Source of the DNA: Zestosphaera tikiterensis
GTDB lineage: Archaea > Thermoproteota > Thermoprotei_A > Sulfolobales > NBVN01
Reading direction: 5' to 3'
DNA: 32,000 nt
Assembly (NCBI GenBank): GCA_003056265.1
Contig: NBVN01000003.1
Coordinates: 120,001-152,000 of the forward strand
Positions 6,624 to 30,929 of this stretch are shown in pieces. A program made the translations under genes and the position numbers. Within the stretch, counting starts at the first letter, position 1, and every line of letters begins with the position of its first letter. Under the pieces are notes generated by a model. That model saw only the letters and a list, made by a program, of their open reading frames with translations, did not search any database and had not been told where the DNA came from.

Positions 6624-7510
6624 TGGTCTTAACGATTAAAGACCTACCTAAGGATAAGTACGTAATGCCGGGTAATGCGGCATGCCCCGGATGTCCGGAA
6701 AACTTAGGTTTAAAGTTCGTTGGGATGGCTTTAGGCGAGAAAGCGATTTTAACCATACCCGCCGGCTGTACCTCAGTAATTCAAGGCCTGCTGCCGGGGT
6801 CAGGGCTTAAATTCCCTATAATTAACGTCCCCTTCGCGTCGTCGGACGCTGTAGCTGCGGGGGTAAGCGTAGCTAAGAAGTTGATTGGGGAGGACGCCGT
6901 AGTTATTGCTTGGGCTGGGGACGGAGGCACTGCGGACATAGGGTTTGCGACGCTTTCAGGAGCTGCTGAAAGAAACGATAATATCATACACATATGCGTG
7001 GATAACGAGGCTTACATGAACACAGGCATTCAAAGATCTTCTCAAACCCCCTTAGGGGCTTGGACCACGACTACTTGGAAAGGAAAGAAGGAAAGGAAGA
7101 AAGACCTACCGATGATTATGTTAATGCATAAAATACCTTACGTAGCTACTGCGAGCGTCGCATACCCCCTAGACTTCATAGAAAAGCTTAGGAAGGCAGC
7201 ATCCATTAAAGGGTTTAAGTACATCCACCTACACGCTCCATGTCCAGTAGGTTGGAGGTTCGACCCAATGAAGACCGTAAGCGTTGCTAAGTTAGCTGTC
7301 GAGACAGGGATGTGGATATTATTCGAAGCCATCAACGGGAAGGTAGTGATAAGCCCTCCAAGCAAGCCATACGTAGATAAAACCAAAAGAAAACCCATAA
7401 AAGAATACCTATCAATTCAAGGCAGGTTTAGAAACATAACTGAGGAAATATTAAAAGACCTCGAAAGACAAGTAGATGAAAACTGGGAAACACTCTTAAA
7501 GTTTACATAA
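6620..7510 (+). CDS. 2-oxoacid:ferredoxin oxidoreductase, beta (TPP-binding) subunit
   Basis: It has a CPGCP cluster ligand motif and a TPP-binding GDGGTADIG...N motif. An ATGA overlap links it to alpha. Confidence 0.9.
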   Translation: MMVLTIKDLPKDKYVMPGNAACPGCPENLGLKFVGMALGEKAILTIPAGCTSVIQGLLPGSGLKFPIINVPFASSDAVAAGVSVAKKLIGEDAVVIAWAGDGGTADIGFATLSGAAERNDNIIHICVDNEAYMNTGIQRSSQTPLGAWTTTTWKGKKERKKDLPMIMLMHKIPYVATASVAYPLDFIEKLRKAASIKGFKYIHLHAPCPVGWRFDPMKTVSVAKLAVETGMWILFEAINGKVVISPPSKPYVDKTKRKPIKEYLSIQGRFRNITEEILKDLERQVDENWETLLKFT

Positions 7511-7686
7511 AACAGGTTTTCCCCTAACCTCCTTAATCAACATTACCTCAATAAGCTTACCCAAAAAGCCAATCAAACAAGCCCTCAAACCTTTAACCTA
7601 GTGTAGTCAGAATAAACATGGATTTACTTAGAAAATCCTTATCTTTCAAAAGCTAGAGGTTAGGCTAATACCTGATGAGGTCTTAG

Positions 7687-7702
7687 AGAGTAAATTTACA
7701 CT
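7687..7702. repeat. Copy A of a 16-bp palindrome (AGAGTAAATTTACACT, one mismatch to the perfect palindrome)
   Basis: Read directly from the sequence. It is identical to copy C and differs at one base from perfect copy B. Confidence 0.9.
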
Positions 7703-7772
7703 TAAATGAAGAAGCAAATCCCTTATCCTCCCTAAAAAATAGGAAAATGAGTAGATAAGAAAGCGTGTTTTG

Positions 7773-7788
7773 AGTGTAAATTTACACT
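7773..7788. repeat. Copy B, a perfect 16-bp palindrome AGTGTAAATTTACACT
   Basis: Read directly from the sequence. It is self-complementary over all 16 nt and lies about 130 bp downstream of the stop of the 7919..8281 gene. Confidence 0.9.
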
Positions 7789-7918
7789 TAAAAAGGTTTT
7801 CTGCAGTTTCTTAGTGTTCTTTAAGCTATTGTGTATGCTATGTGAAGAGGGGTTTGAAGAAGCTACGATAAACCCACCTACGGAAACTAAGGGAAAAGCC
7901 GTAGCGGAAGCGGTTGAT

Positions 7919-8281
7919 TTACTGCCCTGTAAATGCTTTTTCAAATGCCTTCTCAATAGCTTTCCTATAGTTTGTTAGACGTGTGAAGAGCTTCGTAAGA
8001 ACTTCCTCTACAGCTACTTCATATTCGATTCTTTCATCTTTTGATAATTTCTTAAAAGCTTTAAGTAGTGAGTTGATTGCTGTTTCGATATAGTCTTGAT
8101 CCTCTATGTTTGTAAGTTCTAAGTCGTGGAGGGCTTCAACCCTAACGTATCCATCTAAAGGGCCTACGTAGCAGTACGTAACACCCTTCGTCTCCGGGTT
8201 GTAGTGCCTGTAGTAGACGTACCTCCTGCCACTAATCACACGCACAATTCGAGACCCGCTCCTACCACATTTAGGGCACAC
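7919..8281 (-). CDS. Small Zn-ribbon protein whose N-terminus resembles the N-terminal domain of SSV-type integrases
   Basis: It has a CPKCG knuckle followed by GRRYVYYRHYNPETKGVTYCYVGPL. The same G-[KR]-x-YVY...Y-V-[GA]-P-L pattern occurs in the integrase N-fragment at 14936..15295. The C-terminal half is helical and charged. No tyrosine-recombinase catalytic domain is present. Confidence 0.6.
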   Translation of the reverse strand: MCPKCGRSGSRIVRVISGRRYVYYRHYNPETKGVTYCYVGPLDGYVRVEALHDLELTNIEDQDYIETAINSLLKAFKKLSKDERIEYEVAVEEVLTKLFTRLTNYRKAIEKAFEKAFTGQ

Positions 8282-8304
8282 GCTGTCTATTCCTAACCAC
8301 CCAC

Positions 8305-8320
8305 AGAGTAAATTTACACT
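8305..8320. repeat. Copy C of the 16-bp palindrome (AGAGTAAATTTACACT), overlapping the promoter/TATA position of the 7919..8281 gene
   Basis: It is centred about 31 bp upstream of the start codon at 8281. The TAAATTTA core could double as a TATA box for a leaderless or short-leader transcript. Confidence 0.85.
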
Positions 8321-8937
8321 GAAGAAACTAATAAACCTTACTTTATCTATTTACTGTAAAAGATGCGCCTACATTATTTTATTAATGTGAATCAATAGAG
8401 TTTAAGTCATGATTGTAAGTTGTTAAATTTTTCACCTTAGTATAAGTAGATATATTACATGAAGTCTAATATCTGAAAACCAATAGATTAGATATTAAAA
8501 CCAAAAGTTTTTAACCCCTTTATTTCCTGTGGAACCCACATACAACCCACGAAGCCAACTTTTACATCCAAGTTTTGCAGACATTCAAAATAGCGTTGAT
8601 TAAGCAACCGCAAGAAAATTTCGGGAGTGAAGGTATTGAATAATTATGTATGGGAAATCCAAAGGTTAGGAACCAACATTGCTGACCGCACTCACCTCAT
8701 AATCTATTATGAGGTTGTTAGAAATAAACTACTTCGATACTCCAAAAGAACTGAATACATAGGAAAGCATTAAATTACGTAACGTAACCTAGAGAACCCT
8801 TTGCTAAAACAAAGCTTAATCAAAAATAGATTTAACGTACTCAAGAGCTACTGCGAAATAAAAATCAACACATAATTTGAAATATAGTATAAAATTAAGC
8901 TAATTAAGGCTTTACTTTAAGCATTATTTAATTAACG

Positions 8938-8963
8938 CCCCCACCCCTTCATTTCCACTGGAA
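8938..8963 (-). repeat. ORB-like box, left (bottom strand reads TTCCAGTGGAAATGAAGGGGTGGGGG)
   Basis: It has the TCCAGTGGA dyad followed by a G-string, and is the inverted partner of 9251-9277. Confidence 0.7.
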
Positions 8964-9027
8964 CGGAAAACCCTATTAAACACGTTAATTTCAACATATC
9001 ACCTCAATGTTTTTAGTGAAGGAATTC

Positions 9028-9051
9028 AAGAATTTCTTAAAGAATTTCTTA
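9028..9051 (+). repeat. Tandem 12-bp duplication AAGAATTTCTTA x2 inside the AT-rich core
   Basis: Read directly from the sequence; the two adjacent copies are perfect. Confidence 0.8.
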
Positions 9052-9250
9052 AACCTTAAAATAAAGAATATATTACGTCTTATTTTTATTTTTTAAAATA
9101 ATGTTAAAGTAGAAAATAAAAAGATGTTATTTATTATAATTCTTACTTAGCATATTAAATAATTATTAACTATGCTTATAAAATAGAATATCTTATATAT
9201 AGAGATAATTATACAAACTAAATCAATGCAATTTAAAATATGTTAATAAT

Positions 9251-9277
9251 CTCCAGTGGAAACAGAGGGGTGGGGGT
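9251..9277 (+). repeat. ORB-like box, right (CTCCAGTGGAAACAGAGGGGTGGGGGT)
   Basis: It has the TCCAGTGGA dyad followed by a G-string, and is the inverted partner of 8938-8963. Confidence 0.7.
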
Positions 9278-9487
9278 GTTTCTGGATTTATTTTTAGGTG
9301 TTTATTGGTGTTTTATGAATTTTATTTATATGTTATTTTGTAGTGATGTATTTTATCTGCTTTACATCTGGTTTTGTTTGAATGTTTTTGATTTTGTATA
9401 AAGTGTTTTAATTGAGTTGGTTTTACTTAATGGTGGGTTTTGTGGTGGGGTTTCATCGGTTTGAGTTCCTCTGGAGTTTTCCTAAGG

Positions 9488-9673
9488 TTATGGTTTTCCT
9501 ATTATGTATGGTGTGAGGTATGTTAATATGATTACTGAGGTTGCGAAAGCTATTGAGAGCCATATTATCGTGTATGGTTTTATACCTACTTTAGATTCTA
9601 CTTCTTCGAAAAATCTAACTAGGCCAGCACCGCTTGCCGGCCCTACCTCCCTTCTTTTTCTTCTGCTTGACAA
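9488..9673 (-). CDS. secG: Preprotein translocase subunit Sec61beta (archaeal SecG)
   Basis: The protein is 61 aa. It has a basic N-terminus, then SGAGLVRFFEE...IKP and a single C-terminal TM helix, which is the signature layout of archaeal Sec61beta. Confidence 0.85.
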   Translation of the reverse strand: MSSRRKRREVGPASGAGLVRFFEEVESKVGIKPYTIIWLSIAFATSVIILTYLTPYIIGKP

Positions 9674-9737
9674 CTTAAGCCCCTACACATCTTACTTAAG
9701 TTTAGTTATAAAGCTTTCAAATTCTCAACGACTTGAT

Positions 9738-10010
9738 TTAATGGGGTGGTTCAGGATTTAAGTATTTCTTCTTAAACGCTTCGTTTAAATCTATGTTAAG
9801 TAGGTTAGCTATAGATGCTAACCAAGCTAAAACATCCGCTATCTCCTCCTCACTCCTCTCCCTATCGTTGGATATAAGCGCTTCAGCTAACTCACCAACC
9901 TCCTCAACAAACCACGTAAAAGTTGCGTAAAGACCTCTAGCGGAATCCCTCATAAAGTAATACCTCCTCATTAAATCCTGAACCTCCTTAAGTTTTAAAT
10001 CCTCCGTCAT
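9738..10010 (-). CDS. MazG-like nucleotide pyrophosphohydrolase domain protein
   Basis: It is a 90-aa all-helical protein with EEVGELAEA...EEEIADVLAWL metal-binding EExxE/ExxD-type motifs. Confidence 0.75.
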   Translation of the reverse strand: MTEDLKLKEVQDLMRRYYFMRDSARGLYATFTWFVEEVGELAEALISNDRERSEEEIADVLAWLASIANLLNIDLNEAFKKKYLNPEPPH

Positions 10011-10184
10011 TTAAACACACCATTAAATATACGTAACTTAGTTAAAGATATATGCTATGTGATTTACAGTTGGTTGGGTTTGAAATGAAAAAGCATGATG
10101 ATGGACAGTGTGGATTAAATATAGTTTTTAGAGCGGTATTTAGTTATATAATAGTATGTTAATAGCTTTAGGGGAATAACCTCC

Positions 10185-11237
10185 CTATATGAGGAGGACC
10201 GCCGATCCTCTGATTTTAGCTCCTTTAACGAGTTTTAACGCTTTATTAACTTCCTCTAGCTTGAATGTCTTCACTTCAGGTTTGACGTTGTTTTTTAGAG
10301 CTATTGAGAGTAGTTCCTTCACGTCTTTTCTAGTTACGTTAGCAACGCTTTTAACCTCTCTTTCCATCCATAGATGTTTGACGTAGTCTAAGTTCGTCGG
10401 TGTTTGCTTTCTTATTACGTTAATCACTAACTTTCCTCCTCTCTCCAACAGCTCTAAAGCTCTACTCACCATCTCCCCTACGGGAGTGAAGTCGATGGCC
10501 CTATCTAGTTTTTTAGGTGGGTTTTCCTGCGGGTGTCCCGCCCATTCAGCACCTAACTTCCTGGCTAGGTCGCGATGTTCCTCACTCCGGCTGAATACGT
10601 ATATCTCAACGCTTGGGTATAGCTTCCTAACAACTTGAGTTATTATGTGTGCTGACGCGCCGAATCCGAAGAGACCTAATCTAAACCCATCCCTTACGTC
10701 AGCTAGCTTAAGAGCTCTATAACCAACAGCACCCGCGCAAAGCAACGGCGCTATCTCATAATCTTCTAAACCACCTTCACTCGGTATTAAATACGTGAAA
10801 TCCTCGTAAGCTGTAGTATACTCCGCGTAACCGCCGTTTATATGGCATCCCGTCCCTTTAAACTCACTGCATAAGTTCTCCAAGCCAGACCTGCAGAACC
10901 TGCAAGTACCGCAGCTCCAGCCAATCCAAGCAACACCAACTCTATCCCCTACTTTAACCCTGCCCTTAGTTTCGAACCCGACTTCCTCAACCCTACCGAC
11001 TATTTGATGACCTAAAACCAACGGTAAACTACACTCAACCCTACCCTCTATGATGTCTATATCCGTATAGCAAACACCACACGCCTTAACTCTAATTAAC
11101 ACTTGATTAGGGCCTACCTCAGGTGTTGGCAGATCCTCCAAATCTAAAGGCTCTTCTTTAAGTGGTAGGTTAGGGTAACGCCTCGGTAACCCCTCCGCAA
11201 AAACTTCAGAGTGTTCTTTAAGGACTGCCGCCCTCAA
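10185..11237 (-). CDS. Zinc-dependent alcohol dehydrogenase family protein
   Basis: It has a catalytic Zn motif (CGVCYTD...GHQIVGRVEEVG), a structural Zn loop (CGTCRFCRSGLENLC) and a Rossmann motif (GLFGFGASAH). Confidence 0.88.
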   Translation of the reverse strand: MRAAVLKEHSEVFAEGLPRRYPNLPLKEEPLDLEDLPTPEVGPNQVLIRVKACGVCYTDIDIIEGRVECSLPLVLGHQIVGRVEEVGFETKGRVKVGDRVGVAWIGWSCGTCRFCRSGLENLCSEFKGTGCHINGGYAEYTTAYEDFTYLIPSEGGLEDYEIAPLLCAGAVGYRALKLADVRDGFRLGLFGFGASAHIITQVVRKLYPSVEIYVFSRSEEHRDLARKLGAEWAGHPQENPPKKLDRAIDFTPVGEMVSRALELLERGGKLVINVIRKQTPTNLDYVKHLWMEREVKSVANVTRKDVKELLSIALKNNVKPEVKTFKLEEVNKALKLVKGAKIRGSAVLLI

Positions 11238-11295
11238 TTAACGTAACACCAGATAGATATTATTCGATACGACGTTAATTAAATTTAACCATACC

Positions 11296-12654
11296 TCAAC
11301 GAATAAACTCGGTAACCTCCATAGGTAAATCAAGGCATGCCCTCCACCTACCGTAACGTACTTCAGGCATTATCAAATGCTTAACCGCTCTATCCACCGG
11401 TACGTAAACACCTAAAGATACTTTCCTTTCCAAAGCGATTTCATCCCTAGCTAAGTTAGAAGCTTTAAAACCGCATTTAGGGCATCTCCACCCCTTACCT
11501 CGACCTAAGGACTTCATCCTATGACCGCATTTAGGGCATTTAGGGTTTAAATACTTAACCCCAACGACATCTAACACGCTTACCTTATCCACATGAAGTA
11601 CGGGCCCGAAACCCGTCCAGAACTTAACACCGCCGCAAACCTCCACGCGATCTCCATCCATTAAAGCTTGAAGTACTTTATTAAGGCCTGTTTCTTTAAA
11701 CGCTACGGCGTTAAGGGTTGAAACCCCGTCAACGATTTTAATCATTACGTCACCACCTCGTAGGGTTGAGGGCCTACCTAACACAACACCTTCAAAACAA
11801 CCTGTTTGGTAGGGTCTCACATCATCTAAAGATCTCCTCACGTGGTGGGCGTTAGTTCCTTGATTGGTTTTAAACACTGCCCAACCTTCTATCTCCTCGC
11901 AGATCTTCAACGATTTAAAAGCTTTAAGAAGTGCTTTAGGGTCCTCACCTCTAATACCTAGAAGAACTGGATTACTTCCTGAGGGGGTTATGAGCGGCTT
12001 ATCCTTGCTGTAGTCGTAGTTAAGGAAAGTTACGTGTTTAAACTCCTCATCCATAGCTTTAATCGATTCTACATCAACACACCTCTCTTTAAGGTAGTTG
12101 CTAGGATGTCTATAAACGATTAACTCATAAGTACAGTCAGGTAGGTTAACAGCTCCAACGGCGGCTAAAGCCCCTACCAAACCCCTCTTTAAACCAAGGG
12201 GTGTTTCCACACGCCCGTTTAATTCGTTAATTACGTTAACTAAGTAGTCCATATGTACGTAATCGGTTAACGCCTTAAGGTAGAGCTTCCTTAAAGGTTC
12301 CGATACTTCACCATATACGAAAGCTAAGCCTGGATCCACACCATAGCTTGTTAAGTCTTCATTAACGCGTGTGCTTACATACTTTAAAACTTCATTAACG
12401 ACGTCCTTCTTCAAACTATCTAGAAGTTCCGTCGGTACCTTAAGCCTTAAGGCTAAGGCGGCATTCCCTCTAGTTTTGAAAGGTATTGTAGGGTTTAAAC
12501 GTATTAGGTTTGGAAAATCTAAGGGTGTTACTTTAGAGTGTTTGTTAAGTATGTTCTTAAGTATTCTGTAAGTTACGTGTGTTGTACAACCTGAAAACTG
12601 CGTATCTACGTCGTCTAAGCCTATATGGACTGTCGTGTAGTCGTTAACACTCAC
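11296..12654 (-). CDS. tiaS: tRNA(Ile2) 2-agmatinylcytidine synthetase TiaS
   Basis: The N-terminus reads HIGLDDVDTQFSGCTTH. It also has FPNLIRLNPTIPFKTRGN, GLVGALAAVGA and a C-terminal Zn ribbon (CPKCGHRMKSLGRGKGWRCPKCG), matching the TiaS domain order. Confidence 0.88.
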   Translation of the reverse strand: MSVNDYTTVHIGLDDVDTQFSGCTTHVTYRILKNILNKHSKVTPLDFPNLIRLNPTIPFKTRGNAALALRLKVPTELLDSLKKDVVNEVLKYVSTRVNEDLTSYGVDPGLAFVYGEVSEPLRKLYLKALTDYVHMDYLVNVINELNGRVETPLGLKRGLVGALAAVGAVNLPDCTYELIVYRHPSNYLKERCVDVESIKAMDEEFKHVTFLNYDYSKDKPLITPSGSNPVLLGIRGEDPKALLKAFKSLKICEEIEGWAVFKTNQGTNAHHVRRSLDDVRPYQTGCFEGVVLGRPSTLRGGDVMIKIVDGVSTLNAVAFKETGLNKVLQALMDGDRVEVCGGVKFWTGFGPVLHVDKVSVLDVVGVKYLNPKCPKCGHRMKSLGRGKGWRCPKCGFKASNLARDEIALERKVSLGVYVPVDRAVKHLIMPEVRYGRWRACLDLPMEVTEFIR

Positions 12655-13562: not shown

Positions 13563-13882
13563 GGCGGAGCCGGCTGGCAACCACGGGGTAATCCTGAGGA
13601 AGCACCGCCCTCCGCGCGGCGCGGGAACCCCGTAAGGGGTGCGGGGAGACCCGCGGCTCCGGCACAGAAACGACACGGCCGCCCTCGGATGTCTATGATG
13701 CGGTGAGGACATCCCGGTAACGGGGTGTCAGTAACCCGCTGAGTATGGGGGCGGATGCGTTGAAACGGCCGCCCTCCCGGGAGTAAGGCCAAGCAACGCC
13801 TATGAAGGCCGCGTGAGGCGTGGGTAGGCCGTTTAGCTAAATGTTGCCGTAGTACAGAAGGCGGGCTATAGCCGGCACCGCC
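13563..13882 (+). ncRNA. rnpB: RNase P RNA (archaeal type-A-like, about 320 nt)
   Basis: This is a GC-rich island in AT-rich flanks. The terminal P1 helix pairs GGCGGAGCCGGC with GCCGGCACCGCC. The 5' P4 strand is CR-I-like (CCUGAGGAAGCACC) and the 3' element is CR-V-like (GUACAGAAGGCGGGCUAUAGCC). The two minus-strand ORFs here have Arg/Pro/Gly-rich junk translations. Confidence 0.8.
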
Positions 13883-14924: not shown

Positions 14925-15001
14925 GGGCCGGTAGCTCAGCCTGGAAGAGCGCTCGGCTTGCAACCGAGAGGTCCCGGGTTCAAGTCCCGGCCGGTCCACC
15001 A
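14925..15001 (+). tRNA. tRNA-Ala (anticodon UGC), CCA encoded, no intron
   Basis: I folded the cloverleaf by hand. The acceptor GGGCCGG/CCGGTCC has the G3:U70 alanine identity pair. The D stem is GCTC/GAGC, the anticodon stem is CTCGG/CCGAG with loop CTTGCAA, and the T arm is CCGGG-TTCAAGT-CCCGG. The discriminator is A, followed by CCA. There is a TATA-like TTTATAA about 30 bp upstream. Confidence 0.95.
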
Positions 15002-15295
15002 ACCCCTCATTAAGTTAACTACGTCGCCCGCGATTTCCTTCGCTAGCCTACGTAATTTCTTCGTGGTTAATCTGTAGTTAACTGACCCGTCATCGTTAAC
15101 TACGCCCAGCTGGGTTAGCTGGTAGTGACGCACTAGAACCTCAAGAGGGGCTACGTAGTTTGTGATGACTTTACCGCCGACCCTATACTGCTCGTAGACA
15201 TAGAGCTTACCCTTAACCTTCTTAACGACGAAGCCCAAGCCAACACCCAAATATGTAGTTAACTCTGAAGGCATATTAACCCAAACCCCACCCAA
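14936..15295 (-). mobile_element. Int(N): N-terminal fragment of a partitioned SSV-type integrase, reading antisense through tRNA-Ala (att junction)
   Basis: KGKLYVYEQYRVGGKVITNYVAPLEVLVRHYQLTQLGVV resembles the SSV-type integrase N-terminus. The last about 22 codons (WWTGRDLNPGPLGCKPSALPG) are simply the reverse complement of the tRNA gene. No catalytic C-terminal part follows. The likely ATG is at 15274. Confidence 0.65.
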
Positions 15296-15378
15296 GAGAT
15301 CCTACGTAAGTTATCTATAAAAACGCTATGTAGATGTAAGAAGCAAGTTCTGAAAAACCTTGGCAACATAAATTCATG

Positions 15379-16074
15379 CTAGCGTTTAAACCATTTATCT
15401 AGTGAAATATGTTTATTATGTTCAGCTAGCTCAATTCTATTTCTTATTTCATCGGCAATTTTTCGCTGTATTTCATTGATGTTAGTTAATAAATAGTTGA
15501 GAACTCTTTCTTCGATTTCCAGTTCCTTTGCCTTGACTTTAACCATTTCCGCTATTAATTCACTATATTTATTCTCGTCCAGCTTAACTTCTATTTCCTT
15601 AGCCAGCTCCTCGACTTTGTGTTTATATTCGTCGCTCTTTAATACATCCCGTATTTTTACTAGCCTTTCGTCTATTGGCATGTTCCCACTTGAGTGAAAT
15701 AGTTCGGATTTCAATATAATTTCAGCTAACTTTCTCGGATTCCTTAAGGTAGCTATGTAGTCCAGCATGTCATGCAGGTCTACTGCTAATCTACACTCTT
15801 CTTTATTATAATACTTACTACAAATGGTCAACACCATATTCCTTCTACCTTTACTACCACGACTCCAATCATGCCCGATAAAACCTGCCTCTATTAACTC
15901 ATAGAAAACCCTCTTATCATCTTCACTACTTAAACGGTCCGTAGCTTTAGATGGCTCATCAATCAATTTATTAACAAATCGAGCAACATCCTCACTAACA
16001 CCTAGACAACGAGCCAACTTCACGTGAAGCTTCCAAGAAGGCATTGTAATCAGCCTCTCACTAGCACCACTCAA
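15379..16074 (-). CDS. Hypothetical protein with His/Asp-rich N-terminal domain (SWKLH...GHDW...DLHDMLDY) and a C-terminal coiled coil
   Basis: The ORF has spaced H, HD and HD motifs suggestive of a metal-dependent hydrolase fold, and the C-terminal 80 aa are charged heptads. The probable start is the ATG at 16044 (MPSWKLH). Confidence 0.5.
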   Translation of the reverse strand: MSGASERLITMPSWKLHVKLARCLGVSEDVARFVNKLIDEPSKATDRLSSEDDKRVFYELIEAGFIGHDWSRGSKGRRNMVLTICSKYYNKEECRLAVDLHDMLDYIATLRNPRKLAEIILKSELFHSSGNMPIDERLVKIRDVLKSDEYKHKVEELAKEIEVKLDENKYSELIAEMVKVKAKELEIEERVLNYLLTNINEIQRKIADEIRNRIELAEHNKHISLDKWFKR

Positions 16075-16480
16075 ATTAAATTGTTAGTTTCCAATTTCTT
16101 GTTAGTTATTTTCTTTAAAACATTCACCATTTTAAAAATAGTAACACGAGTAACGTGATTAGAGTTGCTAGTCCTATAAGAGATATGGATATTTTCTTCT
16201 TATGATATCTAATATCACTTCAACGTTGTTGCTTCCTACGGGTACGTCTATCTCCTCCTTGTTGGCTTTGACAGTTCATTATATGGTTAATGATTAATTA
16301 TAAACGACCTTACACCTATGTCTTTAAATTCAAATAAATAAAGTAGTTTTGACTTCCTCAGTTATCGAGACAGAAACATATCCAGTTTAGCTATGACGCC
16401 TCATTGTGATAAATGCCTTTATCACTTTAAAAATTATCGTAAAGGCTTTACTGGAATCTCGCAGTATATTTAGTCAGCAC

Positions 16481-17812
16481 TTAACTTAGATTTCTCACGT
16501 AATTGGTGAACTCCTCGTTACTTGAGAAGAGCTTATACATATTGTATGAGTATATAGCATATACCCTACCGTTTACGCATCCACTCTGACTCCAGTAGCT
16601 AAAGTACTCTTGTAGTGCTATGGTAACATCTTTAGCGGTTAAAGCATAAGGCATATTAGTATAATATCTCCCTGCGGGATCTACTATCGCAAGCTTTCCG
16701 TTAGTTTCAGGTAAAGCTACTGTTGCATGACCTACTGTTTCGTTGTCTTTTTCAAAGACAACCAGCAAAACCCATACAATACGTTTCTTTCCGTTATAGT
16801 TTAATATCATGCTTGCTAAGAGGTTTGCCATATCTTCGCAATCACCAGTTAAATCTCTTGCTGTTTCGTTGGGAAATCTCCAAAATTCACGCCTCCACAT
16901 TAACGACGTATTCAATTCAGGCAATATCGGTTCTGGGGAATCGTATGAGTAGTATATGCTGTCTTTTACCCATAAATACATTTTTAGTATGTCATTCCAA
17001 AGCTCGTTTATATCTGCTTGATTGCTCCAACCGCCAGTAACGTTGATTACAAGCGATTTAATCGCTGGATCTTCTGGTGTTATAAACTTCATCCAGTCCT
17101 CATATTCTAGTGCTTGCCTTAAATTTACCTGGCTCTTGATGCTGTTATACCAAGATATGAAGCTCTCGTATTCGGTTTTAAGTGAGTTATACATATTTAC
17201 CAACGCTTCGTACTTGCTGACTAGCGAATCATAAAACTCTTTTAACATGTTGTAGTTTATGCTTAACTTATCGTAATCTTCTTGAAGTAATGAATATTTC
17301 TTGTTAAGGTCGTTGTACTTATTGTTGAGAGTGCTGTAATCACTAAGTAATGAGTTATACTGGTTTTGAAGTGCAACATAGTTGTTATTTAGTATGTTGT
17401 AGTTGTTAAGTAGCTCGTTGTATTGCGTGGTGATTTTTACGTAGTCGTTCTTAAGGGCCTCGTAATCGTTAAGTAACTGCTCGTATTGATTCTTTAACAT
17501 GTTATAATCGTTTTTAAGTACGCTATAGTTGTTGAGCAACCTACTATATCGAGCGGTAAGCTCGTTATAGCTGTCCTTAAGTTGGTCGTATTGGTTCTTT
17601 AACGTGTCGTAGTTACTTTTAAGTACGTTGTAGTTATTGAGCAACATACTATATTGATTAGTTAGCGAATCATACTTATTACTCAACGTTTGATAATCCT
17701 GTTTGAGAGATAAAAACTCACTATAGAAATACCCAAAAAGAGACGCAAAAACCATATTCAAAACAACTAACGTAACTACCACAACCTTCAACGAAGGCAA
17801 ATTACCTCCCAT
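16481..17812 (-). CDS. Membrane-anchored protein: N-terminal TM helix, 27-heptad Y-x-x-L coiled-coil stalk, C-terminal transglutaminase-like cysteine protease/transglutaminase core
   Basis: The TM helix is KVVVVTLVVLNMVFASLFGYFY. Tyr occurs at every seventh residue from Y40 to Y222. The Cys/His/Asp triad context is TGDCEDMANLL (C325), VGHATVAL (H362) and AIVDPAG (D378). Confidence 0.75.
   Translation of the reverse strand: MGGNLPSLKVVVVTLVVLNMVFASLFGYFYSEFLSLKQDYQTLSNKYDSLTNQYSMLLNNYNVLKSNYDTLKNQYDQLKDSYNELTARYSRLLNNYSVLKNDYNMLKNQYEQLLNDYEALKNDYVKITTQYNELLNNYNILNNNYVALQNQYNSLLSDYSTLNNKYNDLNKKYSLLQEDYDKLSINYNMLKEFYDSLVSKYEALVNMYNSLKTEYESFISWYNSIKSQVNLRQALEYEDWMKFITPEDPAIKSLVINVTGGWSNQADINELWNDILKMYLWVKDSIYYSYDSPEPILPELNTSLMWRREFWRFPNETARDLTGDCEDMANLLASMILNYNGKKRIVWVLLVVFEKDNETVGHATVALPETNGKLAIVDPAGRYYTNMPYALTAKDVTIALQEYFSYWSQSGCVNGRVYAIYSYNMYKLFSSNEEFTNYVRNLS
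17129..17722 (-). repeat. 21-nt (heptad) periodic coding repeat region
   Basis: It encodes 27 consecutive heptads with invariant Tyr and Leu/Ile/Phe at +3. The repeats are degenerate at the nucleotide level. Confidence 0.85.
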
Positions 17813-18371
17813 AATTTATCATAAAGAGTTACATAAAAAAGATTGCGTTGCTAAATAATAAATTGTTAGACAGATACTAGCTACTTCTTTAGTTAGTTTA
17901 AAAGACCTTTCTAATCTAACTCAGATACAAAGATCTTGATCATCACTCTTCTCTCCAAAGAATATAGGAATTGATGTCATATTACTGGTATTCTGGTATT
18001 ATAAAGAGAGTTCTCACGATTGCTTCGTACCTGCTACCTACCTATGATAAGCCCTTTTATTTCTCTTATTAGAGTTCAAGAAAAAGGTTAAAGAAATAGT
18101 AAAACCTGTTATAAAGGTAAGGAGCTAACGTTAGAAGAATACATTAAAAGAGTAGACGAGGAATGTAAAGGCATGAGAAAATTTAGAATAAGCACAAAAG
18201 AAAAATCTAAATACGAAGACAATTGAAACGCCCTATTAAAAACTTAGAAGTAGGTAACATAAACCAAATATTGTTGCCGTTGAAGCTTGCTCTTAATGGT
18301 AAGAGCGTAGATTGCTTATTAAACTGCTTAAACATGCTTATATCTTAACCTTTATAAGGTTTGCTTAGGGT

Positions 18372-19589
18372 TTATAAGTAAGGGTAGTGACCGTCTGGGT
18401 GGGAAGGGTAGAATTTCTCGTTCATTTCCTTTATCAGTTCTAGCAGTTCGTGTGAATTGTGAGCTAAAGGTATGCTATCGAGTAAATCTCGCCATTTCTT
18501 ACTTTGTTCGCATAACCCATTCCATTGCGAATACCCTTTGTCTAGTCCTCTAAGGGCATCAGATAAGCTAGGGTCTAGTCTTCTGAGGACGTTAGATAAG
18601 CTAGGTATGTCAACACCAACTTTCAATCCGTATTCCTGATATTTATTGGCGTAACCGCTTAACCAAGCTTTTTGGAACTTGTTAGGTTCAAACTCCTCAA
18701 GCGGAACTTTTCTTCCGTTACCTGTCTTTGGATTGTTGCGGAAATCTCTGTATGCTTCAAAGTGAGGCACGACATTATTTATGAACATATCGTATAGCGA
18801 ACTAAAGTCGTTTGACCAAGTTCTTGGGTGGAAAAGCGGATATTCCTTCGGTAGGGAGTAAGGATCTATGGGTACAACCGCTACGTTATGAAAGTCTATT
18901 GATGGGCCTAACCCTGCTACGACATATAACGCTACATTGTTAAAGTTCTCATCCCATAGGGGTTTAACAACCTTTAATAGGGTTTTAAAGCCTGTTAGTT
19001 GCTTTTCTAAAATCCTTGAGCTATCCCATTCACGTTTCCCAGTAGGATCCTTGAATGATAATTCAAAGATAATCCTTCCCCGCCCGCTATCACGTAGAGA
19101 TTTCTTAAGCTCTTCTCTAATAAGGCTAATTGCCTTCTCGTTATTATTTAAGGTCGAGAAGAAGATACCATTTGTTTGAATAACAGCTCTTGTGCTGGGA
19201 TATCTGTTCAGCCCAATTTCTTGTATTACCTGTAAAGCCTTACCGCAGGCTTTTAACGTAAGTAAAGTTCTATCCAAAGAAAGGCACGGCTCACCTCCCT
19301 GTATTCTTACCCAGTTAATTTTCCTTTGAACGTTAAGACTGTAGAGATTATCCAGAGCCTTCAATACGTGATCTAAACTATATGTGTAACCCTCTCTATT
19401 CGGAAACCACGCATATCTCCAAGCATAACATAAGGGACATCTAAGGTTGCATCCAGCATACCTTAAAACAAGGGCGTATCCTTCACCACCTCTTTTACCT
19501 TCCTTATTCAACTCAAAAGGTCTAATTTTCGAATCTATTGATGACTCAGTTGGTGATCTAGCAAAAAATTCGTATTGCTTCATAACCAT
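18372..19589 (-). CDS. Radical SAM enzyme (activase/QueE-like N-terminal core) with an uncharacterised C-terminal extension of about 200 aa
   Basis: The CX3CX2C motif is AGCNLRCPLCYAW (codons at 19428-19451), and the GGE SAM-binding motif is IQGGEPCLS. I do not recognise the second half. Confidence 0.75.
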   Translation of the reverse strand: MVMKQYEFFARSPTESSIDSKIRPFELNKEGKRGGEGYALVLRYAGCNLRCPLCYAWRYAWFPNREGYTYSLDHVLKALDNLYSLNVQRKINWVRIQGGEPCLSLDRTLLTLKACGKALQVIQEIGLNRYPSTRAVIQTNGIFFSTLNNNEKAISLIREELKKSLRDSGRGRIIFELSFKDPTGKREWDSSRILEKQLTGFKTLLKVVKPLWDENFNNVALYVVAGLGPSIDFHNVAVVPIDPYSLPKEYPLFHPRTWSNDFSSLYDMFINNVVPHFEAYRDFRNNPKTGNGRKVPLEEFEPNKFQKAWLSGYANKYQEYGLKVGVDIPSLSNVLRRLDPSLSDALRGLDKGYSQWNGLCEQSKKWRDLLDSIPLAHNSHELLELIKEMNEKFYPSHPDGHYPYL

Positions 19590-19787
19590 ACTCTATAACC
19601 TCATCAATATCCTCTCTGTAAATCTACTATGTTAAGTAACCTTATATAGTTTCAACTCAAACGTTGCTCACTATCTAAGCATTCAACGCAGACTTCTTAA
19701 CCCTTGCGTTTAAAGCTGTGGAAGGGAAGGTAAACGGTTTAAATGTTAAACACGTATATAATTATAGTGTTATGGTGGTTGCTTGTG

Positions 19788-20096
19788 ATGTTAGGAAAGA
19801 TACACATATTACTGAATAAGGAGATGATCCGCGATGGGAAGTATCAAGCAATCGTAGAGAGGCAAGCCAAGCTCTTAAGGGAACTCATAGAGATGAGTAA
19901 TATCAAATGTCCCTTCTGCGATTATAAAGCAGACATATCTCAATTCAAGCTCCTCAGAGATCCTTGGAGGTTTAGGTTCTACAGAGTTAGGATGCTTCAA
20001 TGCCCTAAATGTCATGGAGTATTCAACCATTATTACGGGCTGTCCTCAAAGGATAAGGAGGTTAAGTTCACAGTTAAAGTAAAGCCTGGGAAATGA
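19788..20096 (+). CDS. Small Zn-ribbon protein (CPFC...CPKC)
   Basis: The ORF track starts at 19743, but TATATAAT at 19755-19762 lies inside that extension, about 29 bp upstream of the in-frame ATG at 19788. A leaderless start at 19788 is therefore more likely. It has two CxxC pairs and is transcribed divergently from the radical SAM gene. Confidence 0.55.
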   Translation: MLGKIHILLNKEMIRDGKYQAIVERQAKLLRELIEMSNIKCPFCDYKADISQFKLLRDPWRFRFYRVRMLQCPKCHGVFNHYYGLSSKDKEVKFTVKVKPGK

Positions 20097-20102
20097 GCAG
20101 AG

Positions 20103-20276
20103 ATGGCTATGGTTGAAAAGCCTACAGAGAGAACTTACGCTACCGAATTGGTTGCGGTGATTAAAGAAAAGAAAGATTTAGGTTTTGACACGGAAGTTGA
20201 AGAGCGTTTGAGTTGCTTAGACTTTATAGTGCGGTTAACCATTACCCTGACTTTAGGGTTTGATAGGTCTTCATGA
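20103..20276 (+). pseudogene. 57-codon ORF, possibly a truncated PD-(D/E)xK-like nuclease N-terminal fragment
   Basis: It starts 7 nt after the Zn-ribbon stop. YATELVAVIKEKKDLGFDTEVEERLSCLDFIV resembles the E...D-hh core of restriction-endonuclease-fold proteins but ends prematurely. It is below the ORF-track cutoff. Confidence 0.3.
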
Positions 20277-20403
20277 TTTCCTCTAAAAGGTCTACAGCAT
20301 TTAACTCAAACGTCAAGATTATCTCATAAAAATTCTAAGAAAAGCAGAGAACCTCAACATTCGCCACATGCTTGAGGCTCCGCTTTTTAAGGTGGGGTAA
20401 ATG

Positions 20404-20410
20404 TTTATAA
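20404..20410 (+). promoter_or_regulatory. TATA box (TTTATAA) positioned for transcription of the structured RNA candidate
   Basis: It lies about 26-30 bp upstream of the first base-paired G run at 20432-20436. Confidence 0.4.
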
Positions 20411-20435
20411 GTTTGTGTTTAATTAAGTCATGGTT

Positions 20436-20588
20436 GGGTGTGGGCAACCGTAGCTTGGGATGAGACCCACATCTTCCCGGAGCTGACGGCGGGAGCTGAT
20501 AGGTGATGCGCTCCCGGTGAGGGGCTTCAGAAAGGTGATGGAAGCCCTAGGGGGAGAACCCCTGTTAAAAACAACAGGGGCCGTCAGC
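20436..20588 (+). ncRNA. Unclassified GC-rich structured RNA candidate (5' hairpin plus a 9-bp helix closing three hairpins)
   Basis: I folded these helices by hand: 20436-20444/20466-20474, 20482-20490/20580-20588, 20491-20496/20510-20515, 20521-20528/20541-20548 and 20559-20566/20573-20580. The G:U pairs form only on the + strand. No ORF of 60 aa or more is present, and GC is much higher than in the flanks. Confidence 0.45.
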
Positions 20589-20781
20589 ATCCAAGAACGG
20601 AATACCCTTAGAGAAAGCTTTCAACCCTATATATCATCTTATATTTGAACAAGCACTTAACAAACTGTTGGTTGAGGGTGTTGTAGTAAGTCCTAAGGAG
20701 AGGATTGATGGGGGAAGTATTCAGCGTTTCTTATCGTGCTTCAACCCAGTAAATAACCTACTGCTTAGTTGCTCTTATTAA
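20569..20781 (+). pseudogene. Start-less open frame (70 codons), likely the C-terminal remnant of a decayed gene
   Basis: The translation IPLEKAFNPIYHLIFEQALNKLLVEGVVVSPKERIDGGSIQRFL looks protein-like, but there is no ATG and its 5' end lies inside the RNA candidate. Confidence 0.25.
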
Positions 20782-24934: not shown

Positions 24935-27900
24935 TTAATATTCGCATGTGGGGCATTCCCCTGACTCGCCTTCCTTTAACACGTATCGGGTGATTCTATA
25001 CCTACTTAAATCCTTTCTAACTTGTTTTGGCTCCACCTCATGTTCTGCTTCTTCAGATTTACGGATTACTCGTTCCTTTACTTGAGGTTCTTCAAGTTCT
25101 TTACCTTCACGTGACATCTTCTTAGTTAGCTTCGCACCGAAGTAAATCACTTGCTGTGTCTTGCTTTTATCTCTATATACGGTTATTCCTTTACAGCCAA
25201 CCACCCATGCCGTCATATAAGCTTTCCTAACGTCTTCTACGGTTGCTTCAGCCCTCATGTTAATTGTCTTACTTACTCCAGCGTCCACCCATTGCTGCCA
25301 TGCCGCTTGATGAAGTATATGCCATATAGGTTCAATGTCATGAGCTGTTGGGAAAACCTCCCTAAGCTTCTTGGGTATGAAGGGATTCCCCCTTACGGAA
25401 CCTGACTCCGCAACAACGCCAACTACCTCCGGGTTGTCGAGGCCGTAGAGTCTGAGGGCTTCTAGGAAGAGTGGATTAACTTCGATGAAAGTCCCTACAG
25501 TTACTACTCTAGTGAACGCTAAAGCAAATATGGGTTCTATAGATGATGAAGTGCCGCCGATTATCGAGACCGTCCCTGTAGGCGCTATAGAAAGTACGGC
25601 GGCGTTTCTTAAACCTTTAGCTCTAACCTCACTTTCAAGTTCTCTCCAATTAACGGAGGGCCTTTCAAACACAAGCTTCTTCACCTCACTTGAGATGTTG
25701 CCGGAGACGCCGCTAGCTTTGAAGATCTCTTCTAAAGGAAGTGCGTCACTCCAAAACATCTTGTAAAGCTTCGAGTTCCAAGCAGGGAACGGACCTTTCT
25801 CAATAGCTAACTTAAGTGAAGCTCTATAGGCGTTGTAAGCAATCCACTCAGCAAGGTGGTAAGCTAGGTAAACAGCATCTACGCTGTCGTAGGGGATTCC
25901 TAACTTCACAAGCATGTGGGCCCAACCCATAACACCTAAACCAACTTTCCTCGTTCTTCTAACACGCTCCTCAATTTGAGGGAGTAAAAACCTAGCAACG
26001 TCAATAACATTATCTAAAAATCTAACAGCTACCTCAACATCCTTTCCTAAACCCACCCAATCTATTCGGCCGTCGCTAGTCACGTACTTCTCAAGGTTTA
26101 TACTTCCTAAATTGCAGGCCTCCCACTCAAGAAGAGGTTCCTCACCACAGTTGTGATGTATTAATCCGGCCGCAATGTAGGCGTGAACCTCCGGTACGGT
26201 GAAGTCATAAAAGTCTACTACTCCAGCGTCTTCAACTCTCTCCACCGACACCCAGACCGGGTCGCTCTCAGCTTTACTTAACTTCAGCTCGGTGGTCTTT
26301 TCCAATGATTCAAAACCTACGAGTTCAGTGAATATGTGACGGCTGTAGTTACTTATCGTTAACTCATAGTATTCGGAAGCCTCATATACCTTCACCTCAT
26401 CATTTGCTGTGGCATAGCTGAATTTCCTGTCGTGTGGTTTGCTATATATCTCGCTGAATATCCCTATCGTCGTTAGCAATATTTGAACGTCCTTAAGCAG
26501 GTCTGAGCTGGCGTTAGTCAGCCTTATCGCATCGTCAAAACCTGTAGCTCCGTTGGCTGTGAATAAACCACGTAGGAAAGATTTAAGGGATTCTAGATCT
26601 AGCTTCCAAGCAATCTCTGGAAGTCTTCTCCTATGCTGGTATGGAGGGATTTCACCAATAAGTTCAACCACTTTCTTATATGCACTTGTTCCACTACCGA
26701 ACTTAAGTGTTAATTCAGCTTTATCTAACACCGCATTACCGTCTGAGTTCCCGCCTAACTTAGCTATCGCCTGCTTAACCCTCTCGAAAGCAGCTCCATC
26801 CCCTGATTTAAAGTGCCACGCGACATAATCCTTGCTTAATGCGCCGTTTCCCACCAACCAACCAAGGGCGAACGCAACGTCCGAATCGAGTTTGATAGTA
26901 GAGGTCAGGGCCCTCCCTACATACTCTGGATGCATTCTCGCTAACGCTATTGCGTCGCCAGGCCTTAACTCACGTGCTTCTTTCCAACCTTCAGGGGTTA
27001 GGAATCTATGCTCATACGTGACAGTTACCTCATACCCTTCCTTCGTAACTACCTTAAGTGCTGGCTTCCTACCTACGTACCAAACCCACGCTTTCTGCGG
27101 AGCTACGATTTTCAACTTTAACTCTTTGTTTTCGGCGATTCCGCGTACAGCAGATTCACCTACCGGCGCTACAAGCGTTGTTTCGTATGCTATCGGTTCA
27201 CCACCCTCGCCGAGAACTTTTTCATCAGCAACTACGGTTTTGACTTCAACTCCATGTTTCTTAGCCTCCTCCCAAACCTCCCGGGCGGTCCTCCACCCCT
27301 TAGGTGTTAATACACGGGTCTCTCCACTAACGCATGGGTTGGTCGCGTTTATCTTGCCTAAGTACCACGTCGGATGTCTTCGGTTTATAGTGTCTATGAA
27401 TAGAAGCCCTGGGTCTCCCGACTCCCAAGCGTTCTTAACTATCTCCTCAAATATTGCCTTAGGGTCTTCCCACGCTACTATCGCCCCCTCCGCTTCAGCT
27501 ATCGCTAAAGCTTCGTCCCACGTTATTATGAGGCTATTCTCTAAAGGTATGGAGCCTCCGTTCATTTCCAACTCATCTATTATTACCTCCTGAACCCATT
27601 CCTCATCCATGTAATGTCTTGCCCAGACGACAGCGTATTTCAGCGAGTTATGTGTTTTATCTAAGGAGGTCTTTCTTGGGTTGATTAAAGGTACGGGTTT
27701 TCCTTCATTTAACGCTTTCATGAAGTAGTCGTACATACCTACGGATATGTTGAAGTTTTGAAGGACGGCGTCTTTCCCCTCGCCAGATTTAGCTTTAATG
27801 AACTTCTTAATGTCTGGATGCCAAACGTGAAGTACGCCCATGTTAGCTCCTCTACGCCTTCCGCCCTGCTTAACGACCTCCGTATTCACGTCGAACAGCT

Positions 27901-28699
27901 TCATGAATGAAAGAGGTCCTGAAGCAACTCCAGCAGTTGAAGCGACTACATCACCTTCAGGCCTTAATTCAGAGAAGTTGAAGCCGCAACCACCGCCCTG
28001 CTGGAATATAATTGCTTGAGCTCTAACGGCGTCGTAAATCCCATCGTTTTCAGGCGTTACCATAGCGTCTCTAACGGGTAAGACAAAACACGCTGAGAGA
28101 ATTCCCAACTTAGTTCCTGCGTTCATTAACGTAGGTGAGTTGGGAATGAACCTTAACTCCTTCATTAAACGAAGGAACTCGTTAAACCAATATTCCCTAG
28201 ATTCCGGCTTCTCAGCGGAAGCGACGAACCTAGCCACCCTTTCAAAAAGGGCTTTAGGCGTTTCTAAAAACCTTCCGCTGTTTGGATCCTTCCTTAAATA
28301 CCTACTCATTAAAACCCTTAAAGCATAGTAAGTAAGTCTTAAATCGTCTGGGTCGAAAGAACTCCACTTACCCTTGCCGAAGACGTCGTTGTAGATCCTC
28401 GCAAGTAAGTAGTACCTACCAGCAACTTCATACCTAGGGTCTTCAACAACCCTGGTAATGAAAGCCTTCTCAACAAAGTCGGATATCTTACTTGAAGGAA
28501 CTTTATCAGGCTCGTTAAAAACGGAGTTTAGAACATCATCCATAACTGACGTAAGTGACGCGTCGTTTAAACCAGCCGCGTTTAACGCCGCATGAACACT
28601 CTTGACTAACTTACTCAACTCAAAAGGTTCTTCACGTCCATTCCTCTTAACTACGGTTAGGGATTTCATAGTCAAACTCAATCGACCTATACCATTCAC
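24935..28699 (-). CDS. nrdJ: Ribonucleotide reductase large chain, most likely class II (adenosylcobalamin-dependent), with an N-terminal ATP-cone and one intein
   Basis: The ATP-cone reads [19 protein letters not shown] core motifs are [36 protein letters not shown] and GGRRRGA. NP|CGE is interrupted by an intein. The C-terminal tail is CPTC. No small subunit gene is adjacent. The ATG at 28669 is a likelier start than the GTG at 28699. Confidence 0.88.
26150..27334 (-). mobile_element. Intein (395 aa) with a LAGLIDADG-type homing endonuclease domain, inserted in the NPCGE active-site motif of the RNR
   Basis: The host NATNP is followed by [10 protein letters not shown] (block A), TYEH (block B), LGWLVGNGA and [10 protein letters not shown] (LAGLIDADG motifs), and the intein ends IAAGLIHHN, followed by +1 Cys (CGEEPL). 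The length of 1185 nt is in frame. Confidence 0.9.
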
Positions 28700-30039: not shown

Positions 30040-30059
30040 CTCATATAGGTTTTCCCTTC

Positions 30060-30929
30060 CTAAAAGATTACCTTATTCTGTTCTTTCAACCTATTTAACG
30101 ACTCGTATATCTCTTCCTTACCTACGCCTAACTTAGACGCTACGTCATTTACGTCTAGGAAGCCGTTATGCGTTAATATATACTCCAGCACAGCCTTATC
30201 TAACATGCTGGGCTCCATCCTCCTACTAGGTGTTTTAGGCTTCGACGGCTGTGGTTGAGCTACAGCCTCCTTAACCCTCTCCTCCAAGTTACTCTTGACT
30301 TTAACAGGGACAAGGATATTCAACGGTATCTCGGGGAGTTGATTCTTCACAGTTTCCGCAGCTGCTTTCTCAATCTCCTCCAACAACTTCTTAGCTTCAG
30401 GTGTGTATTCCAAAGCCTGCTCGGGCTTCAGCTGGACGTAGTCTGTTGTGGAGGCTAGCATCTTCCTCGATTCGTTAATCATAGTTTCTATGTTGTACGC
30501 GAGGCTCGGTATAACGTCTTTAACGTAGTCTTTAGCTAGGGAGAGTAGGTTAGAAACCTCAATTAAAGATGGTGAGATATTACTCACATCTTCTAAGGTC
30601 TCAAGCCTTAGTTTAACTTGCTCAAGCACCTTCTCAACTATGACTAACTTCGTCACCATCTCACGTACTTGATGAGCTTCATTAGCGTATATTAAAGCTC
30701 TATCGCCTTCCTTACTGACCGTAGCCGCTATAGTTGCTTTCAGTAGGTTCTCGAACCTAGACTTAAGCCTAGCTATAGCTTCAGTAACCTCCTGCTTAGC
30801 TGTGTCTATATGAACTATAAGTAGGGATATAACTCTTTTCTTCTCTAGCTTAGATTTACTCCTACTAAACGGACCTATTAAGTTCCTGAACCATTTAAGC
30901 ACACCCCCCTCATTCTCTACCGATGTCAC
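30060..30929 (-). CDS. cdvB: Cell division protein CdvB (ESCRT-III/Snf7-like with C-terminal winged helix)
   Basis: It has a long helical-hairpin core and a C-terminal wH ([38 protein letters not shown]). It lies between cdvA and cdvC. Confidence 0.85.

Follow-up and report, generated by a model that had tools for sequence, protein, structure and literature searches.

The closest described counterparts of the element considered here are the Orc1-1-dependent origin oriC1 of Sulfolobus and Saccharolobus (S. islandicus REY15A, S. solfataricus P2) and Ori1 (oriC1) of Aeropyrum pernix. Sulfolobus oriC1 contains three origin recognition boxes (ORBs), two of which are inverted around an AT-rich duplex-unwinding element (DUE) (PMC12141716). 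The DUE holds a motif called ucm, which in S. islandicus oriC1 is bound by UBP, a protein that also binds MCM, and substitutions overlapping ucm make firing of this origin undetectable in vivo; conservation of the motif extends to the Sulfolobales and to the two origins of A. pernix (PMC12141716). In A. pernix Ori1, canonical ORBs that are bound by Orc1-1 flank an AT-rich region, which opens on Orc1 binding (PMC8287685), and neither cdc6 gene of this organism adjoins an origin (PMC5333045). Here we describe a locus with the same cis elements in a 32,000-nucleotide stretch of DNA from Zestosphaera tikiterensis (contig NBVN01000003.1, positions 120,001 to 152,000), the whole of which we refer to as the window. 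Judged from its sequence, the region 8514-9405 of the window is very probably a chromosomal replication origin of the Orc1-1/oriC1 class, belonging to an uncultured Desulfurococcales-related Thermoprotei archaeon.

The likeness to Sulfolobus oriC1 lies in the three ORBs, which fit one consensus, in the inversion of two of them around AT-rich DNA, and in a ucm within that DNA that is identical over 11 bp. With A. pernix Ori1 the window shares canonical ORBs flanking an AT-rich region, the reported presence of ucm (PMC8287685, PMC12141716), a cdc6 gene that is not next to the origin (PMC5333045), and a lineage of the Desulfurococcales type. There are also differences. In Sulfolobus the orc1-1 gene is immediately adjacent to oriC1 and the ORB3-DUE-ORB2 unit measures 130 bp with ucm midway, whereas the unit in the window measures 339 bp with ucm placed asymmetrically, and the window has a second, outer ucm-like copy. 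A. pernix Ori1 has two ORBs per side, four in all, compared to the three of the window, of which the left side has two and the right side one. A sequence-only reading of the window had already proposed an oriC here, and this is now supported by the exact ucm, by the selective conservation of the ORBs and ucm, and by the recurrence of ORB clusters with a ucm core at 13 related loci. The elements are listed below, with conservation given relative to L084, the closest relative, which has a 77% identical TiaS protein and the same gene order.

8514-8535, bottom strand: outer ORB, equivalent to ORB1; a full ORB with G-string, reading GTTCCACAGGAAATAAAGGGGT on the bottom strand and oriented as ORB-L
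8936-8964, bottom strand: ORB-L, reading GTTCCAGTGGAAATGAAGGGGTGGGGGCG on the bottom strand, with its dyad toward the AT-rich core and its G-string away from it
8965-9249, no strand: AT-rich core enclosed by the inverted ORBs; candidate region for duplex unwinding and MCM loading
9028-9053, top strand: tandem repeat of AAGAATTTCTTA, 2.2 copies with 100% matches, inside the core
9208-9218, top strand: ucm motif ATTATACAAAC, a predicted UBP binding site inside the core, 34 bp from ORB-R and 246 bp from ORB-L
9250-9278, top strand: ORB-R, reading TCTCCAGTGGAAACAGAGGGGTGGGGGTG on the top strand, with its dyad toward the core
9386-9405, bottom strand: 20-bp block TTTTTGATTTTGTATAAAGT, perfectly conserved with L084 (4083-4102 there)
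9392-9402, bottom strand: outer ucm-like copy TTTATACAAAA (9-mer core at 9393-9401), within the 20-bp block and inverted relative to the inner ucm
9465-9476, bottom strand: dyad-only box CTCCAGAGGAAC, an exact dyad without G-string

The two inner boxes had been described as inverted 25-nt copies identical at 22 of 25 positions, and a pattern scan agrees with that description. The pattern TCCAGTGGAAA-N4-GGGGTGGGGG occurs exactly twice in the 32 kb without a mismatch at the specified positions (8938-8962 on the bottom strand and 9252-9276 on the top strand, 25 nt each), the differences are confined to three of the four N4 spacer bases, and the pattern has no match in 100 dinucleotide-preserving shuffles. 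Together they form the longest inverted repeat in this region, with arms of 29 nt whose dyads face inward and whose G-strings face outward, and ORB-R has the same sequence in a strain variant (L003). Both fit the archaeal ORB consensus CTTCCAGTGGAAACGAAAGGGGT (PMC4153887, Table 2), for which a 'GGGGGT' extension has already been noted (PMC4153887). Membership of this class calls for at least two ORBs, each with a TCCA-N2-GGAAA dyad and a G-string, and for an inverted arrangement around an AT-rich duplex-unwinding region; the window contains three full ORBs, two of them arranged in this way.

The box is not confined to this lineage. It is found exactly in at least 120 public metagenome contigs, with one or two copies each, either singly or as inverted pairs, and 80 such loci were retained for analysis. 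In 11 of the retained loci the inverted pairs are 1.5-1.7 kb apart, and when the longest open reading frame (ORF) between the copies was taken, it measured approximately 410-465 aa in 10 of the 11. All three of the bracketed ORFs that we scanned against Pfam carry Cdc6_lid and Cdc6_C domains and are therefore orc1/cdc6 genes, and since the same box brackets such genes, it must be identical with the mark of initiator-linked origins in archaea that are unrelated. These orc1/cdc6-linked pairs, from Methanomassiliicoccales-like and other archaea (L088, L094, L097, L124, L126, L163 and others), have the exact 25-nt box of the window in inverted orientation; unlike the window, these pairs bracket the orc1/cdc6 gene itself over 1.5-1.7 kb. 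No ucm is expected in these loci, because UBP has been reported only for Desulfurococcales and Sulfolobales.

Further out, the sequence-only reading had placed two weaker, dyad-only boxes and taken them to be inverted relative to each other. Both dyads exist (TTCCTGTGGAA at 8524-8534 and, on the bottom strand, TCCAGAGGAA at 9466-9475), and the 32 kb have no exact TCCANNGGAA dyad outside the interval from 8.5 to 9.5 kb. The right one indeed has no G-string, but the left one turns out to be a full ORB with G-string. Both read best on the bottom strand, and since the right outer box, like the left, reads on that strand, the outer pair is not inverted. The right dyad at 9465-9476 is absent from L084; it was rejected as a functional element for this lack of conservation, and its relevance to the origin is doubtful.

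Between the inverted 25-nt boxes lies a spacer of 289 bp. Its composition (18.5% GC over the 287 bp of 8964-9250, compared to 42% for the whole window) is less extreme than the 'almost pure A/T' first claimed, although it is the AT-richest stretch of the window and contains its AT-richest 100-, 200- and 287-bp segments. The least stable 100 bp of the window by nearest-neighbour energy are also found here, at 9113-9212 (-97 kcal/mol compared to a mean of -131 +/- 8). The whole region between the 120-aa ORF on the left and sec61beta on the right spans 1.2 kb without a credible ORF, and a search for non-coding RNA in 7500-9700 gave no Rfam match at E <= 1. The perfect tandem reported in the core is real, with AAGAATTTCTTA repeated 2.2 times at 9028-9053. 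As it is not conserved in L084, where only loose similarity is found, we rejected this 12-bp tandem as a functional element, and it probably is not one.

Several further sequence features of this region were observed. A palindrome with 16-nt arms, AGCATATTAAATAATT/AATTATTAACTATGCT, is located inside the AT-rich core at 9149-9176, and a G-string-like tandem of TGGTGGGGTTTG (1.9 copies at 9431-9453), which L084 lacks, follows on the right side of the origin. The DNA that flanks the inverted ORBs has a mirrored strand composition, with top-strand counts of A35 C13 G50 T112 in 9278-9487 and A163 C72 G60 T107 in 8536-8937, so that the strand running 5' to 3' away from the core is T- and G-rich on either side. 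The same mirrored composition is seen in L084 and, more weakly, in most relatives, where the flanks partly overlap genes.

A second origin element, independent of the ORBs, is the ucm inside the core, which had been overlooked in the sequence-only reading. It is an exact match to the 11-bp ucm of Sulfolobus oriC1, ATTATACAAAC, as defined by the oligo UCM30TOP, which was used to purify UBP, and its transversion control (PMC12141716). A ucm within the DUE is a feature of Sulfolobales and Desulfurococcales origins, and the window has it in that place, as a single copy of the 11-mer. Around it, the block TAGAGA[TC]AATTATACAAACTAA is kept in L084, is one base shorter in L007 and in L008 extends only up to the C. 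The 9-mer core of the motif, TTATACAAA, occurs twice in the window and twice, at equivalent places, in L084, and it is rare more generally, with 17 copies in 1.2 Mb (loci L004-L085). The two copies bracket the right ORB, and their span is the same in both genomes (193 bp in the window, 191 bp in L084). The outer copy might serve as another UBP site or as a TATA-like promoter.

To trace what has been retained in evolution, we aligned the window with L084 segment by segment, with shuffled sequences as controls. The result is a footprint in which a few short blocks are perfectly kept in otherwise randomised DNA. ORB-R is identical at 25 of 25 positions and sits inside a 31-bp perfectly conserved block, ORB-L is identical at 24 of 27 with differences only in the N4 spacer, and the outer ORB at 20 of 23. 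The stretch between the two left ORBs (400 bp in the window, 243 bp in L084) shows an identity of 0.48, compared to 0.47 for the shuffled controls, and the right flank 0.64 compared to 0.59. The core itself is at 0.67 compared to 0.63 for shuffles, with its length kept (289 and 281 bp). An exact copy of the 120-aa product was not on record, and the MazG product was found on three short contigs only, one of which (L001) is 100% identical to window 8147-11443.

A TiaS profile search with one genome per GTDB species gave 80 loci, none with a TiaS closer than 54%, and of these we examined 19 from metagenome-assembled genomes of Thermoprotei. Twelve of the 19 (L005-L011, L014, L015, L025, L027 and L070), together with L084, constitute the 13 related loci discussed here, while L004 is cut by a contig end. 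They are labelled Sulfolobales, Desulfurococcaceae, Desulfurococcales, Pyrodictiaceae, Ignisphaera or Thermoprotei; no Aeropyrum TiaS was among the best 120 matches of two protein searches. A check of synteny in related genomes, which the sequence-only reading had proposed, shows that clusters of ORB-like boxes recur in the tiaS-POR-sec61beta-mazG block of all 13 loci, with two to six boxes each, compared to a background of 0.13 hits/kb elsewhere, and nearly all of these boxes end in GGGGT. The shared gene block comprises RiboBiog-AsnC-TiaS, the ORBs, often a gene with HTH_3 and CBS domains, PORgamma-delta-alpha-beta, Sec61beta and MazG, with inversions of sub-blocks that differ between lineages. 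The 100 bp of lowest GC in an entire locus fall within approximately 100 bp of the ORB cluster at 9 of the 13 loci.

The ucm core accompanies the boxes. It lies inside the ORB cluster in exact form in 12 of the 13 loci and with one mismatch in L014, and in 11 of them (ten exact, plus L014) it has a bottom-strand ORB to its left and a top-strand ORB to its right; for L015 and L070, where the core is also inside the cluster, a top-strand partner was not found. Across relatives, the inverted ORBs are separated by 99 to 289 bp. In L007, L008, L010 and L027 the ucm sits near the middle; in the window, L084, L005 and L009 it is off-centre, and in these last four the unwinding region measures 230-290 bp with ucm 25-34 bp from one ORB. 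Lineages that keep the ORB/ucm unit have TiaS proteins 37-54% identical to that of the window. The chromosomal position is stable and the motifs are conserved among related genomes; from this conservation at one position, together with the rarity of TTATACAAA, it follows that the unit has long been a fixed part of the chromosome and is no mobile repeat.

An orc1/cdc6 gene adjacent to the origin is typical, if not universal, and none is found here. The sequence-only reading had noted its absence, which both of our searches bear out: Pfam scans of all sizeable ORFs in the window revealed no Cdc6 domains, and an Orc1 hidden Markov model (HMM) built from seven metagenomic Orc1 proteins had no match in the six-frame translation, so that the window has no orc1/cdc6 over the 8 kb on the left of the origin or the 22 kb on its right. 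The same HMM detects crenarchaeal Orc1 in L007 (1e-55) and L008 (1e-53). In these two loci an Orc1/Cdc6 gene lies approximately 6.8 kb from the ORB cluster (L007 3326-4579, L008 3732-4982), and the L007 protein, the copy checked against the Protein Data Bank (PDB), is closer to P. aerophilum Cdc6 and A. pernix ORC2 than to ORC1. By this similarity the gene is probably an Orc1-2-type, non-initiator paralogue, and we therefore do not count it as a linked initiator. The fetched flanks of the other 11 loci contain no orc1/cdc6. The absence, which had been called the unusual point of the locus, is real, but its weight was overstated, as A. pernix and 11 of 13 relatives are alike in this respect. 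Given the A. pernix precedent and the relatives without an adjacent orc1, an unlinked initiator is a trait of the clade or lineage and not without precedent. No UBP gene was found among the window ORFs either, as neither the 120-aa Zn-ribbon protein, compared to the PDB, nor the other small ORFs gave a match.

How such an origin would work is inferred here from what has been described for S. islandicus oriC1 and A. pernix Ori1 (PMC12141716, PMC3607249, PMC8287685), our own data covering the arrangement of the cis elements and how far it is conserved. An Orc1-1 orthologue, with its gene at another place in the genome, would act in trans, with one monomer bound per ORB in a fixed polarity. Two inward-facing Orc1-1 molecules would then recruit MCM hexamers onto the core, and a UBP orthologue on ucm could contact the N-terminal tiers of MCM and help the helicases leave the origin, with bidirectional replication starting in the core or at its edge. 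The cis linkage of origin and initiator gene would have been lost in this lineage, as in A. pernix.

Some observations do not sit well with an active origin of the oriC1 class. The 289-bp spacer is more than twice the length of the 130-bp ORB3-DUE-ORB2 unit of S. islandicus, and the far off-centre position of ucm, at 34 and 246 bp from the two ORBs, misfits a symmetric MCM-UBP-MCM picture. Neither GC skew nor gene orientation around the site speaks for an origin, the five genes on its right are all directed towards it, and the initiator and UBP genes of this organism are not in the window. In addition, dormant archaeal origins in which the motifs are intact have been described (PMC4595724). 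A dormant or relic origin, to which initiators may bind but which is normally silent or a back-up, as in Haloferax mediterranei, would accommodate these normal motifs, the asymmetric, over-long spacer so unlike the active S. islandicus unit, and the lack of a skew or gene-orientation signal. We nevertheless consider it improbable, since purifying selection maintains the ORBs, ucm and the length of the spacer amid randomised neighbouring DNA, and since the retention of the unit in one neighbourhood down to 37-54% TiaS identity is hard to explain if it is unused. It could also be asked whether the ORBs serve transcriptional control or nucleoid organisation and not initiation, given that Orc1-2-type paralogues are global transcription regulators (PMC9738581) and that UBP has more than 300 non-origin sites (PMC12141716). 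However, the flanking genes point away from the region or end at it (sec61beta ends at 9488), so no promoter needs the site, and the Zn-ribbon ORF is a recent insertion. The unit persists while neighbouring genes change order and orientation among relatives, and inverted canonical ORBs around the least stable DNA, together with ucm, are the signature of an origin and not the layout of a promoter, which leaves an Orc1/Cdc6-bound regulatory region with a very slight chance of being correct.

Two further explanations would make the unit a newcomer to the chromosome. Capture of extrachromosomal elements is the accepted source of extra archaeal origins (PMC4010727), and the adjacent 120-aa Zn-ribbon ORF, which matches the viral family phrog_33343 and is inserted relative to L084, could suggest that the origin of an integrated plasmid or virus arrived together with this virus-like gene. 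Against this, the origin is present in L084 without the Zn-ribbon gene and stands amid housekeeping genes in 13 lineages, and the box is absent from 2.9 million viral contigs. No rep, integrase or att site adjoins it; the sites are canonical ORBs and not those of a WhiP-dependent, oriC3-type origin, and no adjacent whiP was found in a search whose sensitivity for WhiP is uncertain. We regard a captured origin as most unlikely. A non-coding, AT-rich core enclosed by terminal inverted repeats of 25-29 nt is likewise what a miniature inverted-repeat transposable element (MITE) or another mobile inverted-repeat element would show, which is why the sequence-only reading had named a MITE as the alternative, to be checked by copy number. 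The copy count excludes it: no further copies of the box exist in the 32 kb or among the viral contigs, the 80 retained metagenome loci that carry it are all unlike the window, and the 'repeat' is the pan-archaeal ORB. We found neither dispersed near-identical copies in these sequences nor a presence/absence polymorphism relative to L084, the flanks ...TTAATTAACG and TGTTTCTGG... share no target-site duplication, and the unit is at the orthologous position in L084 with a diverged core, so that the probability of a mobile element is close to negligible.

Considering the window and its relatives jointly, it is possible, if rather doubtful in its full extent, that an Orc1-1/ucm origin is anchored in the tiaS-POR-sec61beta-mazG block of a broad, mostly uncultured Desulfurococcales-like clade of Thermoprotei, that the initiator has been uncoupled from it since early in the clade, and that A. 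pernix is one example of an old and stable loss of linkage. In such a clade, the asymmetric, enlarged DUE of the window, L084, L005 and L009, together with the second, outer, inverted ucm-like site of the window and L084, would misfit the symmetric Sulfolobus model. Lack of an adjacent initiator gene is, as the locus shows, common among the origins of a whole clade, which matters for prediction tools that rely on orc1/cdc6 adjacency. The natural variation in spacer (99-289 bp) and ucm position (central or off-centre) could be used to test the role of UBP in MCM release. For an uncultured thermophilic lineage, the window provides a confidently assigned origin with both known cis elements, the ORBs and ucm. 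Current concepts are unchanged by it; an unlinked initiator is already documented in A. pernix.

The genes nearest to the origin are, as first reported, those of a 120-aa Zn-ribbon protein and sec61beta. The flanking genes are the following.

7919-8281, bottom strand: 120-aa Zn-ribbon ORF, left flank; a lineage-specific insertion, not origin machinery
9488-9673, bottom strand: sec61beta, right flank (Pfam PF03911, NCBIfam NF002318); part of the conserved neighbourhood
11296-12654, bottom strand: tiaS, anchor gene of the conserved neighbourhood RiboBiog-AsnC-TiaS ... ORBs ... POR-Sec61beta-MazG

L084 has no 120-aa ORF, and its PORbeta gene ends approximately 75 bp from the outer ORB. Relative to it the window has approximately 0.93 kb of extra DNA at 7511-8513, directly beside the outer ORB, which contains the 120-aa ORF and a 74-aa ORF. 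The 120-aa protein matches phrog_33343, a viral family of unknown function, at 1e-8, and has a weak match to a PSV ORF131-like domain. The ORF was rejected as a candidate for UBP or the initiator because it has no PDB match to UBP and no Orc1 HMM match and is absent from L084. A 30%-identical homologue of the protein is encoded approximately 4 kb from the ORBs in L005.

Seven relatives have, immediately next to the ORB cluster, a gene of approximately 190 aa that runs divergently from the POR operon, at these positions.

L007, 11787-12359: ~190-aa gene
L008, 11799-12374: ~190-aa gene
L009, 11834-12394: ~190-aa gene
L011, 3536-4102: ~190-aa gene
L014, 12702-13271: ~190-aa gene
L025, 7735-8343: ~190-aa gene
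L070, 5082-5513: ~190-aa gene

The copies from L007 and L025, which were scanned, have an HTH_3 and two CBS domains, and the others were assigned by N-terminal sequence similarity. No such gene is found next to the ORBs in the window and L084. Its domains and location suggest that it may be a POR regulator or be associated with the origin.

Elsewhere in the window, a tRNA-Ala gene (14925-15001) is overlapped by a fragment similar to the SSV1 integrase (ORF D-335-like) and is followed by approximately 5.7 kb of low-GC DNA with coiled-coil, radical-SAM and Zn-ribbon ORFs. This stretch is missing from L004, where the tRNA directly precedes the PNP gene. The feature as a whole (14925-20750) is probably the remnant of an integrated element, although no att repeat was found for it at the tRNA-Ala. 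A strain, L002 (Logan SRR17863203), has a MazG protein identical to that of the window and 97.8% identical DNA over 409 bp of window 9630-10037, but upstream of mazG, where the window encodes the alcohol dehydrogenase, it carries genes for a glycosyltransferase and a hydrolase; DNA adjoining the origin block is variable within the population. At 24935-28699 the large subunit of ribonucleotide reductase (1254 aa) is split by an intein with a LAGLIDADG endonuclease domain, and a cdvC-cdvB-cdvA cell-division cluster occupies the bottom strand at 28882-31723. The cdv scores are far below the cut-offs of the Sulfolobales-trained NCBIfam models, consistent with a lineage distant from Sulfolobaceae. 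Finally, an archaeal RNase P RNA (RF00373, 203 bits) is located at 13565-13880 beside RiboBiog-AsnC-TiaS, and it is kept in L005, L008 and L009.

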